The notes under the pieces were generated by a model. The model was not told the DNA's origin, did no database searches, and saw nothing but the letters and a program-made list of their open reading frames with translations. The position numbers and the translations under genes were made by a program. Shown piece after piece: positions 31,090 to 39,682 of a DNA stretch of 64,000 nt. Numbering within the stretch: position 1 is the stretch's first letter; the number at the start of each line of letters is the position of its first letter. The DNA comes from an uncultured cyanobacterium (GTDB taxonomy: Bacteria; Cyanobacteriota; Cyanobacteriia; Leptolyngbyales; Leptolyngbyaceae). Where the stretch lies: the NCBI GenBank assembly GCA_963766075.1, contig CAVYAN010000031.1:1-64000 (forward strand). Direction: 5' to 3'.

Positions 31090-31671
31090 TTAAAGGGTGG
31101 GTTCAGGCGATCGCCGCCGCGTTGGGCGCTTCCACACCGATCGCTCTGCCTTTTCCCGCTCATAGGTAATCAATTTGCCGTAGTACTCATGCTTGCTGAG
31201 GTTCATGGACAGAAACACATGTTCCCGTGTATTGCCAAACCCTTTGCGACGGAAAAAATTAATCGCCGGGGTATTTTCCGGGTCGGTATCCACCAGCATG
31301 TAGCGTGCTCCGTCATCGATCATGCGTTCGACCAATTTATCGACCAGTTTGTCTGCCACACCCCGGCGTTGAAAGAGCGGATTTACGCCTAACCAAATCA
31401 CATAGCCATATACCCAGGAGCCTTTGCTGATAATCGTGCCCAGCACAAACCCAGCCAACTGCGCCTCAATTTCAGCGACCAGACAATATTCTGAATCCGT
31501 GTTGTACAGCCCAATCACTTCCCACTGATCCCAGGTGCGATATAGGTAGGGATACAGATCGCTGGTAAATAACTGCTCGCCCAGATGATAAACCAGAGCA
31601 ATGTCGTCGATATACATTTCCCGCACAATCACGGGCGCTTGGGGGTCGAGGGGTGTGGTGATGTCGGGCAT
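31090..31671 (-). CDS. GNAT family N-acetyltransferase
   Basis: QRRGVA acetyl-CoA motif, NTPAINFFRRKGF. Confidence 0.85.
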   Translation of the reverse strand: MPDITTPLDPQAPVIVREMYIDDIALVYHLGEQLFTSDLYPYLYRTWDQWEVIGLYNTDSEYCLVAEIEAQLAGFVLGTIISKGSWVYGYVIWLGVNPLFQRRGVADKLVDKLVERMIDDGARYMLVDTDPENTPAINFFRRKGFGNTREHVFLSMNLSKHEYYGKLITYEREKAERSVWKRPTRRRSPEPTL

Positions 31672-31798
31672 AGGTCATCTATACAGACGAGATTTCCTGC
31701 ATGGTAGCAAGAGGTATCGTTGTTTGATGCGTTTAGATCCTCGGCATTTAGATCCTTTGCGGCTTTTGAAGTTTTTTGGAAAACGAGATTTTCTTTTC

Positions 31799-32410
31799 TC
31801 AACGCCCCCCACCGGAGGGAGCGATATCGCTACAGGGACTAGAAACCCACTTTTTTTGTTGATAATCGGGAGTATAACAATCCGAAGGTGGAGGGCTGCC
31901 AATTACGAGTATGGGATAATACATTAATCCAAAAAACAGAACGAAAGAAGCTATCAACAGAGTCCCAAAGAAACCTGTCATCAGAAAAACAATCCGATCA
32001 TTCCAATCAATGAGTTCCAGCTCTGGCGACAAAATTGATTCCTGATGCTTCTTTGGATTGTAAAAAACCTTAACTGACTGACCAATAGGATATTTTCTTT
32101 GTGCTTCACGTTCAGCTTCCGCTGGCGTATTTTTACTTGATAAACCTTTTAGGAAATTAGATTTATACGGAATGCCATTGACTGCATAGGTATAGGCAAT
32201 AGTGTACTGTGCGACCGAGACTCCTTCAGAACTTAGAGATAAAGTTATTGGATGTTCAATTATTTCTCCACTAACAAAACTCCATTTCTTACTTTTATGT
32301 CTTTTTCTGAACTTAACCCAAATGCTTCCCGCTGCTATGAGGAAAGTGATGCCCAGAAGTCCTTGAAGAAGTACAATAGGTAGGAACAACAAGAGAATAA
32401 AAAGCTGCAT
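31799..32410 (-). CDS. DUF3592 membrane protein (probable integron cassette 3)
   Basis: TM-W..V.GEI...YTYAVNG...YPIGQSVKVFYNPKKHQES-TM; low GC; starts just after the attC R' site. Confidence 0.75.
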   Translation of the reverse strand: MQLFILLLFLPIVLLQGLLGITFLIAAGSIWVKFRKRHKSKKWSFVSGEIIEHPITLSLSSEGVSVAQYTIAYTYAVNGIPYKSNFLKGLSSKNTPAEAEREAQRKYPIGQSVKVFYNPKKHQESILSPELELIDWNDRIVFLMTGFFGTLLIASFVLFFGLMYYPILVIGSPPPSDCYTPDYQQKKWVSSPCSDIAPSGGGR

Positions 32411-32544
32411 ATGTCCACATTGAAATCAATCAGGTTCAGTGCCACGAACTAACTTGCAAAATCTATATGTTCTAACGCTCAACCCTTGGTATCCCAAAAA
32501 TTGGATAAAGCAATGTTCTGTTGGACTTTAGTAAGGACTGAGCC

Positions 32545-32619
32545 GCATAACGACCCCGTTCACCCGCTGCCAGAATTTTTCGGATTAGCCAAGGAACCTC
32601 GATACGGTCGGTGTGCAGC
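32545..32619 (-). other. Integron attC site truncated by an IS
   Basis: Minus strand: GCTGCACACCG...CGGGTGAACGGGGTC-GTTATGC; same layout as the attC at 35944-36030, with the R'' end replaced by the IS terminus. Confidence 0.7.
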
Positions 32620-35001
32620 GGGAGCATGTCATCCTTTTAGGGAGAATAATCCATTAAGGTAAGCCGTACGGTGGGCTAAGACTTGTGGCACATTTTCAGC
32701 GTCCCACTGTGCTCCAGATATTTGCACCCGACGGTTAATTTGCTTAATCGCCGACTCAACGGCTCCAGAACCAATAGAACAGATGCCCTCAGCTTGATAG
32801 TAAGCATAGTTGACAATCCGGTGGCGATGCTTTTCGAGATAGGTGCAGAAGTTGTACGCCTGTTTCCGCTTCATATCCTTGAAGAGCGCCATCGTCTCAT
32901 CCACCTGACCTTTCCATAAGTAGGCTTCTGCTTGACGCAGGCGTTTGAGCGAACCACCGACTTTTTGTAAGTTTTCGTTGAGATGATACCAGTCTAAAAT
33001 CTCCCGTCGTTGTTCGGGAGTTGCAATTGCCGCAATCAGGTTCCAAACACCGTCATGACCATCGCCCAAACAAGTGATAGGTGTACTTAAAGGTTGGCTA
33101 TTGACCCAATCGATTAAGGGTTGATTTTGATGCAGATTAGCCACCACACCCTGGTCGGTCGCAATCGCTTTGTAGTCGCGCCAGATGCAGAGGTCGCCCA
33201 CGGGAGTCCGTAATCGCACCTTACCCCCGTCAACACAAGCTTCCGTGATGGGTTGGAGGACCACTGGGGCGGGGAAATCGGTCGTTTGGACCAACCGCTG
33301 TTGCGTGTTGTCACTCACCACCATGCCTGTGAGCAGCGCTACATCGGATTCTGCATTGGCATAGCTCACATTCGCACTGACGCGTAAGCAGCATAATTCT
33401 AAATACGGGCTGATTTGCTTGCCTGCAGCCACACCTAAGGCTTGACCTTGTTTCTCGCTCAAGGGGAGGCGACCTAAAATACTTTTTAGGGTGCGGATGT
33501 ATCCGGCGTTTGTACCTGTAATTGCTGTGATAAAAAAACACCGACTTGGGGACCCACATGTTCCTGAAGTTGCGCGCGAATCCCGGCCTCAATCTGTCCC
33601 AGATTTGTCATCTGACTTTTATCGGGAGCATCTCACCTTTGCGATGAGTAGAAATACTTGTGATCATATCGCCCTGGAAAGCTGAAAATGCGTTGAAAAT
33701 TGACCATTTAGGTAGGCACACCGATGTTTTACGACTTGATCGACATTCTTCGCCTCCCATTGTGCTCCTGAAATTTTCACCCGGCGACTAATTTGTTTAA
33801 TTCCAGATTCCACGCCACCCGAGCCAATGGTGAATCCTTCTGACTGTAAATAGTCATAATTCGGAATCCGATGCCGATGCTTGGTCAGATAGGTGATGAA
33901 ATTGGGCACGGTATCAAGAGTGCAATCGGAGAACAGCGCCATCGCCGCCTCGACTTTGCCAGTCCATAACAAGGCTTCCACCTGATTTAAGCGATTGTTC
34001 GAGCCACCCACTTTGTGCAAATTCTCGACCAAATGGTACCAATCCAGAATTTCACGCCGCTGTTCTGGAACCGCCACCGCACGAAATACATTCCAAATCC
34101 CATCATGCCCATCGCCTAAACAGGAAACCGTGGTGGCTAAGGGTTGGCTATTGACCCAATCAATCAACGCCTCATTTTTTTGGAAATATCCCCCGATCCC
34201 TTGACCTTCTAAAACCACGGCTTTGTAATCTTTGTAAATAGACACTTCACCCTTGGGGGTGCGGATTCTAGCTTTTCCGCCATCTAAACTCATTGATTCA
34301 ATAGTGGTTTCAGAAATGATTCCCTTAAATTCCTGACGATGCACTAATCTATGATGAGTACTATGAGAAATATCTATTCCCATTAGAATTGCTAAATCTT
34401 CTTGTGAACGTGCATAAGAGCTATTTGCACTCACGAGTAGACAGCAGTTTTCTAAGTGCTCACTGATTTGAGTATAGGGTTTTACATTGAGGTGTTGGGC
34501 TTGACGTTCCGTGATTTCAAGATTCCCGATTGTTGTTTTGATGTTTCGCTTTCTTCCCGTTTCGATTTCGGTGGCATTTTTGACAAAAAAACACCGATAG
34601 GAGGGCTGACATGCTGCAGGATTTGCTGACGAACGGTAGTTTCAATATCCCCCAAGGTCTGAATCACTTTCGGATCCGTATCAGAATAGAGAATTTGGGC
34701 AATTTGGTTGGCATGGTATTCTATTTTTTGTAATTCTTCAGGCGTCATGGCGGCAAAGCCTCAAATCAGTGACTCAATTTTGTCGTATTTCGATGAAATT
34801 ATCACTAAGCATTTATGCTCATTGCAAAGGTGAGATGCTCCCCTTTTATCTGCGTCGGCATACAAAATCTTGGCAATGGCTTGCACGTGCTCATCGATCT
34901 GAGCTTTTTCGGCTGGGGTCATGGATATACACTCCCTAAGTCAGGCTCAAACCCTGATTATACAAGACTTATTTTTCTACCCAAAAGGGTGACATGCTCC
35001 C
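32620..35001 (-). mobile_element. ISKra4-family IS (outer element), interrupted by a second ISKra4
   Basis: Terminal IRs GGGAGCATGTCA(T/C)CCTTTT (18/19 match); transposase from ATG 34922 to 32629 with VDGG, LGDGHDG, ILDWYHL, IGSGAVES; T7 slippery run at 33532-33538; no flanking duplication. Confidence 0.9.
33624..34842 (-). mobile_element. ISKra4-family IS (inner element, apparently intact)
   Basis: 25-bp IRs GGGAGCATCTCACCTTTGC(G/A)ATGAG; 8-bp target duplication CTTTTATC at 33616-33623 and 34843-34850; ORFs 34748-34482 and 34434-33664 joined at a T7 run (34585-34591). Confidence 0.92.
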
Positions 35002-35110
35002 TTCAACAGTCTCCATAGATATGAAATTACACCCAGCGTTGCTAAGTACAGCAAATGGCTTTTCAAAAAACAACAATAGAAATTTTAATTCGATAGAATA
35101 TTGAATTAGA

Positions 35111-35833
35111 TCATCTTGTAATCCTACTGCGATGGACTGTGGAAGTAGTGGAATTGAATTGCTTTTGATGACGGGAAGCCCTGAAGAGCTTGTCTTTGAA
35201 GAATATTTTTTTTACAATTTGCGAGTCTTTGATACTTGCAAATTCTAGAGAGTTTTCGATACAAAAGCTTTTTGGTTTATCATTTTTGATAAAAACTGGT
35301 GTTAAATGGTTGCCTGAGTTTTGCAAGCCAATTTGCACATACCCAAGCTTATAGGCTTCTTCTATGGAACGCCCTGCGCCAATTGCTTGATAAAAACCAA
35401 TAGAAAAAGCAATGGCAGCATTATCACCAATTGCCTGGTTCATTCCAATAACATAGTCAATGTGTTGAGCAATAGCATTTGTCTGGCTCTCTGAATAGCA
35501 AGCATTCAGAATTACGCACTCTACCTGCATATTAAATTGCTCAAATAAAGCAGCTAAAGCATCAGGTTTAATTGGATGTATCTTTCCTAACTTGTCTTCA
35601 AAGCATAATGCACCATCAACCGTCCCATGACCTGAAAAGTGAACAACTTGAGGTGCTAGGTCTAGCAGAGCTTGGCTTATATCAGACGGACGAACAGACA
35701 TCCTTTGGTGGAGAGTAAAACAATCACGGAGTTTTGCAAGCTGTAACCTTTCCTAGATTTCTCGTAATTCTTCACCAAGTCTCAATCTAGACAAATTAGA
35801 GGGGTCAGCCGCCAGAAATAAAATTGAAATCAT
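35111..35833 (-). pseudogene. CHAT (caspase-like) domain protein, integron cassette 2; in-frame TAG at codon 27
   Basis: MISILFLAADPSNLSRLRLGEELREI*ERLQ..., VHFSGHG, ILNACYS, YVIGM. Confidence 0.8.
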
Positions 35834-35943
35834 AGAGATACGCAGAAACTTACAACAGTTGCTTAACCACACTTCGTAACTTCAATGTAAACCACCTTAA
35901 ACCTCTGGCTAGTTCTCTTCTCTCTCAACTTAAGACTTGGTCA

Positions 35944-36030
35944 GCATAACGATCCTGCTCACCGGACGCAGATAACCTTTGCATCACAACGATAGCTTAG
36001 ATTTGTTCCGGTGCAGCAGGCTTGTTCGGC
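35944..36030 (-). other. Integron attC site (87 bp)
   Basis: Minus strand: GCCGAAC-AAG-CCTGCT(G)CACCGGA...TCCGGTG-AGCAGG-ATC-GTTATGC, i.e. R'' box, L boxes with an extrahelical G, R' box; lies right after the GNAT stop. Confidence 0.88.
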
Positions 36031-36051
36031 GGCTGTTGATTGACTAGAAGT

Positions 36052-36568
36052 TCACTTTGTTTCAGCGTGTAAGATTAGTTCCATCAGATGCTCATCATAA
36101 AATTGACCTTGATTAGAAAAAGCTTCATGTTCTGTCCCGTAAATGCAAAACCCCAGCGATTTGTAAAGTTGGATAGCAGCGTCTTGGGCTGTGACGACCG
36201 TGAGATGTATTCTACGCAAGCTATTATCTCGTTGAGCACGGACAAGGACTTCACTTGCCATTGCTCGTGCTAGACCACGCCGCCGAAATTCAGGTCTAAC
36301 ATAGAGTCCAGCGATAAAGCCACGATGCTTTTCATTCGCTTCTTCAAAACGTGAAAAGCGGATGGTGCCGACAAGAATTTCATCAGAAAAAGCTCCAAGA
36401 AGATATGTATCTTCAGATTCTTGGAGACGTGAAGCCACTGCTTCAAGTGCGAGCTTTTCTTCTTTTTCGGCTGGAGTGCCGAATGCAGGGGGTTGCTCAC
36501 GCAATGCAGCCAAACGGAGTACTCGATTATTCTTTTACGTCTGCGGGTGTGAGTGTTCGTATTGTCAT
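36052..36568 (-). CDS. GNAT acetyltransferase, integron cassette 1; +1 frameshift near 36528
   Basis: MTIRTLTPADVKE then YRVLRLAALREQPPAF..., LYVRPEFRRRGLA, AIQLYKSLGF. Confidence 0.8.
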
Positions 36569-36613
36569 GCTCTGCCTTAAATTATATCAAAGACGACAAT
36601 GCTGAGCGTAGCA

Positions 36614-36632
36614 GCCGAACAACTTATTACAT
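36614..36632 (-). other. Probable attI core site
   Basis: Minus strand ATGTAAT-AAGTT-GTTCGGC; GTTCGGC is the exact complement of the GCCGAAC R'' box closing cassette 1. Confidence 0.65.
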
Positions 36633-36640
36633 AGACTCTT

Positions 36641-36760
36641 TTCTCGATAATGTCTGGGTGGGCACATTATCGAGAATTTTTTCTCACAATATCCCCACTG
36701 GTAGGGAATTGTCGAGAATTTTTTCTCATGATATCCCCACTACCGGGGAATTATCGAGAA
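36641..36760. repeat. Three tandem palindromic units (40-42 bp period) between attI and intI
   Basis: TTCTC..AT...ATTRTCGAGAA units at 36641-36676, 36681-36718 and 36723-36760. Confidence 0.85.
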
Positions 36761-36837
36761 AGTTACCGTAAATTCACGCACTTTATACTCCGAGTTAAAT
36801 GCAAAATAAATCGCATACAATTCGGAGGCGCATACTG

Positions 36838-37209
36838 ATGTCCTCCCCACCCAAACTGTTTGATCGCCTACATGAGAGTTCCGTCGTCGTCATTATTCCT
36901 ATCAGGCAGAAAAAATTTATATCCACTGGGTTAAAGAATTTATTCAATTCCACACTATGACCCCACTGCGCGAGTGAGGTCGTGAGGCCGTGGAGGCACT
37001 TCAGCGCCCTCATCTTTCTCTATCGCGGAGTCTATCGCTTCGACGCAGATTGGCACCTAGATGTTATGTGAATCAGTCTATTGCCAAACGGCTATGACAT
37101 CCGTACCGTCCAAGAACTCCTCGGCCACAAGGATGTCAAAACCACGATGATCCATACCCATGTGCTCAATCGGGGCGGTTTGGGGGTGCGCAGTCCCTTA
37201 GATGCCTAA
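36838..37209 (+). pseudogene. intI: Integron integrase pseudogene
   Basis: GGAGG RBS, then fragments MSSPPKLFDRL / RRRHYSYQAEKIYIHWVKEFIQFH / FSALIFLYRGV / [39 protein letters not shown]; frameshifts, stops, catalytic core deleted. Confidence 0.9.
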
Positions 37210-37235
37210 ATCCAGGCGCAGGCTCTGGGCGCAAC

Positions 37236-37336
37236 TTGAATATGAGTTCATCGAGTTCTCGAATATTGAATATGAGTTCTCGAAAATTGAATACGAGTTC
37301 TCGAATATTGAATACGGGTTCTCGAAACTTGATCTC
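37236..37336. repeat. 21-bp tandem repeat GAGTTCTCGAAWATTGAATAY x4 plus a partial copy
   Basis: Units start at 37253, 37274, 37295, 37316. Confidence 0.9.
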
Positions 37337-37663
37337 AAGCCATCGGTGGATGGCACCCCCGCAGAAATGCCTGTCCATCCCAAATTTACTCAAAATAGGA
37401 CTTGCAAAGTGCGGCGCAATTCGGTATTCTCTTGCGTTAAGGTGAGTGCGCTTAGGTTTAGTACTCGCCCAGACGCCCAAAGACCTCGGTCTTAAAACGC
37501 GATCGCCCAGTGCGTGGAACCACCAAGCGATCGCTAACCCCCAAGCTGAGTCAGCAGCATGGCGGCTTGTTCTATTTTACAAGCCACCCTGTTTTGCAAC
37601 GCATTCGGGGTGGCTGCGGTTTTTGGGTCTTCTTCCCCCACAAAAAACACAAGGAGACCCATC

Positions 37664-37981
37664 ATGACCACTCAACCGCCGAGTGATAGAAACGATCGCC
37701 CGTCCACTCTCAACGATTCAGGCTCACGCGATCCAGAACAGCGCACGGTCAATGGCGATCGCGGCTCACCCGAAGTCCGCGACTTCATTACCGACCTCAC
37801 CACCCTCGGCAACGAATGGGTCAACATCACCCTCACCGGCTCCCGCCCCGCCGTCCGGGCCATGGTCAACCTCCTGCACCAAGTCAACGTGATTGGGGCC
37901 AGTGAATGGAGCAAGGCCATTGCCATCAAATCTACCCCAGTAATCATCCGCGTTGCCTCTCGGGGCATGCGTACAGAATAA
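37664..37981 (+). CDS. Small cyanobacterial hypothetical protein
   Basis: AAGGAG RBS; C-terminal LTGSRPAVRAMVNLLHQVNVIGASEWS motif. Confidence 0.6.
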   Translation: MTTQPPSDRNDRPSTLNDSGSRDPEQRTVNGDRGSPEVRDFITDLTTLGNEWVNITLTGSRPAVRAMVNLLHQVNVIGASEWSKAIAIKSTPVIIRVASRGMRTE

Positions 37982-38149
37982 TTCAGGGGAAGTCAGCCGC
38001 CCTGCGGTCGCGGTATTCAGGAGCCAGGGAGCGTTAAGCATTCTGGCTCCTGGCTCCTCCCCTGTCCTGCGTTACGCAACTAGGCATGGTCAAGTAATAG
38101 CATCAAGACACAGATCCCTAAAAGATATAGCTCCCTATATAGCCATCTA

Positions 38150-38240
38150 GCTCCCTGAGCGGAGCCGAAGGGAGCAGAGCCGAAGAGAGCGGAACCGAAG
38201 GGAGCGATCGGTAGTTCGTTGAGCGGAGTCAAAACGAACG
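38150..38240. repeat. Cluster of REP-like GAGCGGAGYCGAAGGGAGC repeats
   Basis: Several tandem variants of the motif seen at 10641-10668. Confidence 0.75.
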
Positions 38241-38345
38241 GAAAACTGTGAACCTATTGTTTAAAAAGACCTCACCCCGCGAACCAGAGTCCCTTCCTCC
38301 AAAAGAGACGCAAGGGAGATCCTGGGCACGATAAGACTGTAACAA

Positions 38346-38427
38346 TGGGCGGGGAGAGACTCGAACTCTCATACCTTTCGGTGCCGCATTTTGAGTGCGG
38401 TGCGTCTACCAATTCCGCCATCCGCCC
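38346..38427 (-). tRNA. trnL: tRNA-Leu(CAA)
   Basis: GGGCGGATGGCGGAATTGGTAGACGC-ACCGCA-CTCAAAA-TGCGG, long variable arm, GTTCGAGTC T-loop. Confidence 0.95.
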
Positions 38428-39402: not shown

Positions 39403-39470
39403 GATTGCTCCCTGAGCGGAGAATTCCTCCCTGAGTTAAGGATTGCTCCCTGAGCGGAGTCGAAGGGAGC
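39403..39470. repeat. REP-like repeat, two copies (one partial)
   Basis: GATTGCTCCCTGAGCGGAG(TCGAAGGGAGCA). Confidence 0.75.
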
Positions 39471-39682
39471 AGTTCTCCGCCCAGCCAACGGGAATGTTAT
39501 TTTGAAAATTGCCTCAAGAAACCAGAAACAAGCCAGACGCCAGAAAACATAAGGCAAAAGCAGCAATTTCCCAGTTCGCCCTTCTATCCGTCAGTATATA
39601 GTCAATTGCCTTTTCATGAAGGCGCACCCCGCCATAACAGCCTGGACAATCATGTCTGACACCCCCTGATCCATAGCCAAAA

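Follow-up and report, generated by a model that had tools for sequence, protein, structure and literature searches.

A decayed integron with a phased box array beside attI, one of eight attI platforms in a Leptolyngbyaceae cyanobacterium

We analyzed a 64-kb window of DNA from an uncultured cyanobacterium of the Leptolyngbyaceae (contig CAVYAN010000031.1, assembly GCA_963766075.1) and studied the locus at 31799..37209, which is almost certainly a real decayed chromosomal integron. In integrons, the integrase IntI recognizes the R and L boxes of double-stranded attI and joins this site to attC, which takes part as a folded bottom strand. Taken alone, the locus is an ordinary decayed integron; what is probably new here is the anatomy of its attI and its place in a dispersed system that is probably served in trans. 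The reading that we favor, with good but not full confidence, is that of a platform whose own intI has been destroyed and whose attI is intact, one of eight in the genome, likely loaded in trans and bearing an array of boxes predicted to bind IntI. The genome (G000; the window lies on its contig C31) is a binned metagenome assembly of 126 contigs, 85% complete with 1.7% contamination.

Platforms and the intI Remnant

A single intact intI was found in the genome, on contig C41 (type A, 464.6 bits). There are also five remnants of the intI 3′ end, and behind each of them comes one and the same module, made up of 21-bp repeats, a stretch of conserved sequence, and a small open reading frame (ORF). 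Models of attI identified eight platforms on seven contigs, which fall into three sequence types:

Type A attI platforms: C41, C17, C65, and C31-99k
Type B attI platforms: the window and C11
Third-type attI platforms: C10 and C37, where no intI remnant was seen

Genome-wide, a covariance model yielded 27 attC matches, with 150 of 1591 first-look candidates scored. An initial annotation of the window had pointed to the rest of the genome for further attC sites and an intact intI, and both exist.

The contents of the platforms suggest that cassettes have been loaded in trans. A gene-less cassette of 143 bp, 97-99% identical between copies, stands first at C11, C37, and C65 (C11:1580-1727, C37:2700-2842, and C65:48662-48807), starting exactly at GTT. 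The attI sequences upstream of the three copies are unlike, and the sequence downstream differs in each. C37 lacks intI, that of C65 is deleted, and that of C11 is heavily decayed. One cassette in first place at three unlike attI sites without a working integrase suggests loading in trans, and site-specific insertion at such platforms would be the simplest reading of these copies as far as their sequences go. The platforms on C17, C65, and C31-99k, moreover, have one intI deletion in common, yet they carry different first cassettes. The initial annotation had proposed a once-active gene-capture platform, now either frozen or dependent on an integrase in trans; given the intI of C41 and the cassettes common to several platforms, the second option is the better supported. 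Comparable gene-less first cassettes were seen at loci L020, L023, L035, L176, and L181 of the comparison set.

The window’s own integrase gene is a short chimera of two lineages:

36838..37209, + strand: intI pseudogene, 372 bp of about 966
36838-37063, + strand: 5′ part of type B integrase origin, with a frameshift, a stop, and a 57-bp deletion
37082-37209, + strand: 3′ part of type A origin (the integrase of C41), with the catalytic Tyr replaced by His

The 3′ piece (the last 44 codons) scored 72.6 bits against the integron-integrase model TIGR02249 compared with 38.1 against XerD and 37.3 against XerC, and the 5′ piece matched integron-integrase models exclusively, which bears out the initial call of an intI remnant on the plus strand and places the locus among decayed platforms. 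About 550 bp, including the IntI-specific insert, are missing. Identity of the 5′ part to type B genes is 72-81%, and a DNA comparison gave no match of it to the intact C41 intI; the 134 bases at the 3′ end are 97.8% identical to the C41 type A gene and 70-75% identical to type B. In a tree of 34 rows, the type B integrases (L039, L041, L044, L047, and L048) formed one clade with support of 100/100. The locus is not a complete integron, which would have in cis an intact intI with the insert and the catalytic residues; such a copy exists only on C41. At C8:67700-67930, another intI 3′ remnant, also with His for the catalytic Tyr, is joined to the 3′ end of a gene, and no attI was found upstream of it. 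We take that gene to be ComM/YifB-like.

attI and the Box Array

Beside the 5′ end of intI lie a simple attI site and, on its intI side, a series of further boxes:

36614..36632, − strand: attI simple site, with R box 36614-36620, a 5-bp spacer, and L box 36626-36632
36641..36760, no strand assigned: phased array of six alternating inverted 16-bp boxes, starting at 36641, 36661, 36680, 36703, 36722, and 36745

The crossover falls between 36620 and 36619, with the triplet AAC (GTT on the other strand) at 36618-36620. This AAC is invariant in all 18 aligned type B sites, the cassette side is variable, and metagenome contigs part from the window sequence at 36620. The 7-mer that starts the first cassette, GTTCGGC, is the exact complement of the R″ box of its attC, GCCGAAC. 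The divergent attI core of the initial annotation is in place.

The L box of the core itself opens the box series. In the window, four boxes scored 15-23 bits and two scored 5 bits. The array has a period of 40-41 bp, about four helical turns, and the inward-facing pairs of boxes are spaced one helical turn wider than the core site. When 24 regions upstream of intI were searched for motifs without a seed, 270 box sites were counted compared with 22 downstream and 22-32 in shuffled sequence (each site being counted on both strands); the 5 of 24 regions with at most one site all lie outside the array-bearing clade. In type A/C regions (n = 24), scanned with a 16-bp matrix, neighboring boxes alternate in orientation in 121 of 136 pairs, with gaps of 3-4 and 5-6 bp. 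The same matrix found box clusters in our genome at six A/C platforms and nowhere else, all six being in its training set. The type B matrix detects mostly one orientation, and type B alternation was seen by alignment. There are six boxes in the window and up to 13 at loci of genome G017, and box sequence varies with the integrase clade (type B clade, 100/100). By these sequence comparisons, the array is common to one clade of cyanobacterial integrases. The boxes resemble R and L boxes and are likely accessory IntI-binding sites. In relative G043, a cassette sits outward-facing at the last array box, and the R″ of its attC matches at 6 of 7 bases, which indicates that an array box can act as an IntI crossover.

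The outward cassettes at the last array box of G043 (L179, L196, L162, and L186) are four copies with a common junction and include an apparent PIN toxin–antitoxin pair, and such outward insertion would be a possible route separating intI from attI. At two loci of G017 (L155 and L174), attI is followed by several attC sites spaced evenly at 308 bp, a pattern that suggests a small cassette repeated in tandem. A 62% repeat at 31779-31820 that resembles the attI array, considered as a second attI or a border, drew no match from the type B matrix and has no fold; we treated it as chance.

Cassettes and attC Sites

Behind attI, the minus strand carries two cassettes and a probable third:

35950..36619, − strand: cassette 1, 670 bp, with a GNAT acetyltransferase gene (start at 36568, frameshift near 36527)
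35944..36030, − strand: attC1, intact, 87 bp; the + strand is the recombining bottom strand
35002..35949, − strand: cassette 2, with a CHAT-domain gene (start at 35833, in-frame stop at 35753-35755); its 3′ end abuts an insertion sequence (IS)
32545..32619, − strand: attC2, truncated by the IS, R″ missing
31799..32550, − strand: probable cassette 3, with a DUF3592 membrane protein gene at 31799-32410

The GNAT, CHAT, and DUF3592 proteins all score above their Pfam cut-offs. A rule-based attC scan was too strict, missing attC1, and we relied on hidden Markov models (HMMs) and covariance models instead. An HMM built from seven other attC sites of the genome found attC1 with an E value of 7e-10. 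Covariance model R1 was built from 11 attC sites (10 from other genomes and 1 from C65, attC1 excluded), with compensatory change in 11 of 19 pairs. It scored attC1 at 77.9 bits on the bottom strand compared with 26 on the top strand; because attC1 was part of the HMM by which nine of the foreign training sites were first located, the R1 test is not wholly independent, whereas the E-value test is. By this model of our own making, attC1 has the R″/L″/L′/R′ boxes, extrahelical bases, and bottom-strand bias of an attC site, and its fold has z scores of −2.4/−2.9. The truncated attC2 scored 42.2 bits, and R1 found nothing else above 10 bits in the 64-kb window. The initial annotation would have given up the integron had an attC covariance model scored neither site and had the intI fragments matched XerC/D better than IntI; neither was the case. 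With its two attC sites, attC1 intact and attC2 truncated, lying 3.3 kb from each other, the array qualifies as a cluster of attC sites without an intact intI (CALIN), yet attI and an intI remnant are present.

Cassette 1 behaves as a unit. Contigs of runs X2 and X5, from two independent studies, match the window over 35947/8-36620 with 22-27 differences and then continue into other sequence; their matches end at both predicted AAC crossovers, so the cassette moves as a whole. In G028, a member of another genus, the GNAT cassette is 93% identical and occupies the first position, with another attI before it and another second cassette after it. This is the full-length match in 1 of 89 other genomes. 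The window’s GNAT gene is judged frameshifted because the other copies are one base shorter near 36527 and that of G028 reads through. For cassette 2, the same unit behavior holds at its start. Run X1 contains a CHAT cassette about 99% identical with one base fewer at 35206; attC was found near 1 of 80 CHAT relatives, and the family is therefore mostly outside cassettes. DUF3592 follows attC2 directly. Model R1 found no attC 3′ of it, and the third cassette is thus supported by position; among DUF3592 relatives with context, none of 146 pattern matches was confirmed. The order given by the initial annotation, namely GNAT, attC1, CHAT, nested IS, truncated attC2, and DUF3592, was recovered in full, but the GNAT and CHAT genes proved broken, and the DUF3592 cassette is only probable.

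The AT-rich character noted at the outset was confirmed, with a G+C content of 0.38-0.46 in the cassettes vs. 0.535 in the genome. So was the absence of HIP1 sites, described for about 31700-37490: the gap in fact spans 31107-37499 and ranks fourth longest among 6806 gaps in the genome. HIP1 occurs once per 728 bp genome-wide, a density that is further support for a cyanobacterial host. The longer gaps are C29:5275-13752, C69:16204-22963, and C21:8521-15068; C21 contains attC, and C29 contains an ISKra4 element. At nine loci of relatives (L045, L052, L061, L062, L063, L065, L069, L183, and L187), conservation behind integrase-less attI arrays often seems to stop near HIP1-like sites. A search for a Pc promoter returned only weak matches (9/12 to consensus), and an Rfam scan gave nothing above threshold but tRNA.

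Relatives and Regulation of intI

Integrons are common in this group: intI scored above cut-off in 30 of 61 genomes sampled, our own included. The attI model matched 19 of 25 other near-complete genomes of a chosen set and all 13 within the family, the genomes compared being kin and not independent samples. A type B site was present in 17 of 89 other genomes of the family. At 26 type B loci with an attI match, a full-length intI lay within 1.5 kb in 4, some loci being near contig ends. A correctly oriented attC was found within 4 kb of 14 of the 15 strongest array loci in G099 and of 5/6 in G043 (3 weak loci dropped in G099 and 1 in G043), compared with a random mean of 0.1.

The sequence upstream of intI suggests a possible mode of control. 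Of 35 intI genes, 12, drawn from both types, have an exact GTA-N8-TAC located 30-44 bases ahead of the start (L001, L012, L017, L018, L020, L024, L031, L039, L044, L047, L048, and L165) compared with 0.95 in shuffles (maximum 5), and other spacer lengths gave 0-2 genes; the box was first spotted by eye in the same data. LexA and CRP patterns were present upstream of 1, 0, and 0 of the 35 genes. GTA-N8-TAC is absent from the promoter of the window’s decayed intI. This motif is given as the NtcA consensus in PMC3898017, and nitrogen (NtcA) control of intI is possible.

Mobile Elements and Flanking Sequence

The interruption of cassette 2 and the sequence beyond intI comprise the following:

32620..35001, − strand: outer ISKra4-family element, without a matching target duplication
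33624..34842, − strand: inner ISKra4-family element, nested in the outer one, with an 8-bp target duplication
37210..37990, + strand: repeated module behind intI, with 21-bp tandem repeats, a conserved stretch of about 300 bases that includes a long hairpin, and a 105-aa ORF at 37664-37981
38346..38427, − strand: tRNA-Leu(CAA), a neighbor probably outside the element

The elements resemble the ISKra4 family (NF033572) in their transposases (252 and 215 bits vs. the cut-off of 205), terminal inverted repeats of 31-36 bp, and target duplications of 8-9 bp; they differ in being nested and often close to attC. An identical, uninterrupted copy of the outer element on C100 has a target duplication, and the outer element in the window has none, so an adjacent deletion probably removed the R″ end of attC2. 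ISKra4 pieces lie within 4 kb of attC in 8 of 17 cases, such proximity covering 3.5% of the genome, and ISKra4 ends abut attC or attC-like sequence at C31:32620, C8:62710, and C95:39029.

The module exists in about 20 copies in the genome, of which 7 lie within 4 kb of attC; its ORF is 75-105 aa long and of two subtypes, between which copies recombine. The small ORF belongs to no Pfam, NCBIfam, or PADLOC family, and its Atlas matches were below 0.9, to unnamed cyanobacterial clusters. Among 114 loci with a match to it, only about 5 matches lie near attI or intI loci of other genomes, and it is therefore not a general part of the integron system. A short dispersed repeat found on many contigs has copies in the window at 38150-38241 and 39403-39472.

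The emphasis that the initial annotation placed on tRNA-Leu did not hold. The tRNA lies 1.1 kb beyond intI, past the separate repeated module, and is probably an incidental neighbor. We rejected a tRNA-integrated genomic island: no duplicated tRNA end was found near 31.0-32.6 kb, and the site is not reused in relatives. The peptidase–tRNA-Leu pair persists in 12 of the 27 scanned relatives, and no intI, attI, or attC was found around the same peptidase gene in 28 relative loci (flanks of about 1.5 kb).

Discussion

The initial picture of a decayed integron stands, and the eight platforms, the chimeric remnant, the box array, and the frequency of intI in relatives go beyond it. At this locus, IntI would have mediated attI × attC exchange at the AAC triplet, whose junction positions are observed here. 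By analogy with DR1/DR2 of attI1, the six additional boxes probably serve as accessory sites that place IntI along a single face of the helix; binding to the array and activity in trans are both likely, judging from sequence. Platforms likely multiply by duplication and recombination after damage to intI, since three copies share one intI deletion and the window joins a type B 5′ part to a type A 3′ part. Older cassettes would then decay by the point mutation and the ISKra4 insertion with deletion that are observed here.

Several points weigh against this reading. The only intact integrase is of type A, the window’s attI is of type B, and PMC4792948 describes attI as generally recognized by its cognate integrase; at 85% completeness, the assembly may lack a type B intI. 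Five near-complete relatives with arrays (G099, G107, G109, G060, and G058) carry only short intI fragments, so many platforms are frozen at present, and with both leading cassette genes broken, this platform may not have been loaded recently. The training sites of the box and attI models overlap some of the sites later counted, and the agreement between clade and box sequence amounts to a single event. No run among those compared spans the chimeric intI junction, so that reads offer no check of it (of the 24 runs listed as sharing window sequence, the best has 0.29 of its words and none is an RNA run; 4 of the 24 were compared with the window).

Some of the same facts would fit platforms that were loaded only while their own intI was intact and have since been duplicated or relocated through homologous recombination or IS activity, exchange having ended. 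The broken GNAT and CHAT genes, the lack of a full-length intI in the five relatives, cognate IntI–attI specificity, and the stable arrays that accompany integron inactivation in Xanthomonas (10.1101/2025.06.18.660453) are all consistent with such relics. We nevertheless consider them unlikely, as a nearly identical cassette stands at three unlike attI sites with exact junctions and intI absent, deleted, or decayed, and as the three platforms with a common intI deletion have different first cassettes. Much less probable still is that the integron is real but its array is a host regulator or nucleoid operator, a set of single-strand hairpins, or promoter elements. The region does fold into three hairpins (z −5.6/−6.9) and contains five sigma-70-like matches compared with 1.9 ± 1.2 in shuffles, and accessory repeats are missing from most known attI sites. 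The would-be pairing arms, however, are no more alike than nonpairing arms (10.5 vs. 10.1 of 16; 10.9 vs. 11.1), so the hairpins do not look selected and double-stranded binding sites are favored; we dropped the hairpin reading on this ground. The boxes, moreover, resemble R and L, follow the integrase lineage, and served once as a crossover. Least probable of all is that the number of platforms and the chimeric remnant reflect errors in the binned assembly, through strain mixture or mis-joins at the 600-bp module. The fragmented state of the assembly, several platforms at contig ends, and the unspanned junction leave room for it, but contamination is low, the copies differ by many substitutions, and the same dispersal is seen in single-contig and near-complete genomes.

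Beyond the decayed, trans-loaded platform, we tentatively entertain a broader model, on balance doubtful, of a distributed integron. One clade would have up to about fifteen autonomous attI pads per chromosome, with phased IntI half-site arrays usable as outward crossovers, and a single integrase, present only at times and with its gene often controlled by NtcA rather than SOS, would load them in trans.

Published work establishes that cyanobacteria have integrons and that attC can be modeled; it also covers CALINs, pseudogenes of intI, cassettes without a gene, and DR1/DR2 of attI1, and shows that most attI sites are without repeats (PMC4889954, PMC3108266, 10.1101/2022.02.06.479319, PMC4792948, PMC3146285, PMC8876359, 10.1101/2025.06.18.660453, PMC8352920, PMC12901181, and 10.1101/2020.11.24.395434). 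The sedentary integrons of Xanthomonas with inactivated intI (10.1101/2025.06.18.660453) likewise combine an intI pseudogene, a divergent attI and array, and an IS in the array; they usually occupy one conserved locus beside ilvD, whereas here, eight platforms at unrelated loci have three attI types and a chimeric remnant. Cury et al. (2016; PMC4889954) list cyanobacteria among integron hosts, and their CALIN and In0 classes share with our loci attC clusters without an intact intI and a proposed mobilization in trans. They also state that attI is unknown for most integrons and is not searched by standard software. In contrast to CALINs, the integrase-less arrays here keep a recognizable attI at their head and are potential entry points, not reservoirs alone. 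Class 1 attI1 (PMC12901181 and PMC4792948) has the same R box, 5-bp spacer, L box, and accessory repeats on the intI side; its two direct repeats (DR1/DR2) in 65 bp contrast with up to 13 boxes of alternating orientation here, and the window, with its six, is not of the attI1 type. Vibrio cholerae attIA and most environmental attI sites are without repeats (PMC3146285 and 10.1101/2020.11.24.395434). The cyanobacterial attC family of Ghaly et al. (2021; PMC8352920) is, like ours, a homogeneous chromosomal family described by a covariance model; the material compared is attC only, and the scores given here come from our models, not theirs. A literature search returned no paper on attI arrays in cyanobacteria, on attI platforms dispersed over a genome, or on control of intI by NtcA; subscription papers and supplements, such as the cyanobacterial site lists of Cury 2016 and Ghaly 2021, lay mostly outside that search, and prior mention is possible.

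attI is the least understood part of the integron. With a conserved and searchable anatomy of cyanobacterial attI, many seeming CALINs become platforms that possess an entry site, and it can be tested where integrase-less arrays come from and whether they continue to be loaded in trans. If the reading of a decayed, trans-loaded platform is true, these cyanobacteria would have many gene-capture sites per chromosome, which would be ready-made targets for site-specific integration.

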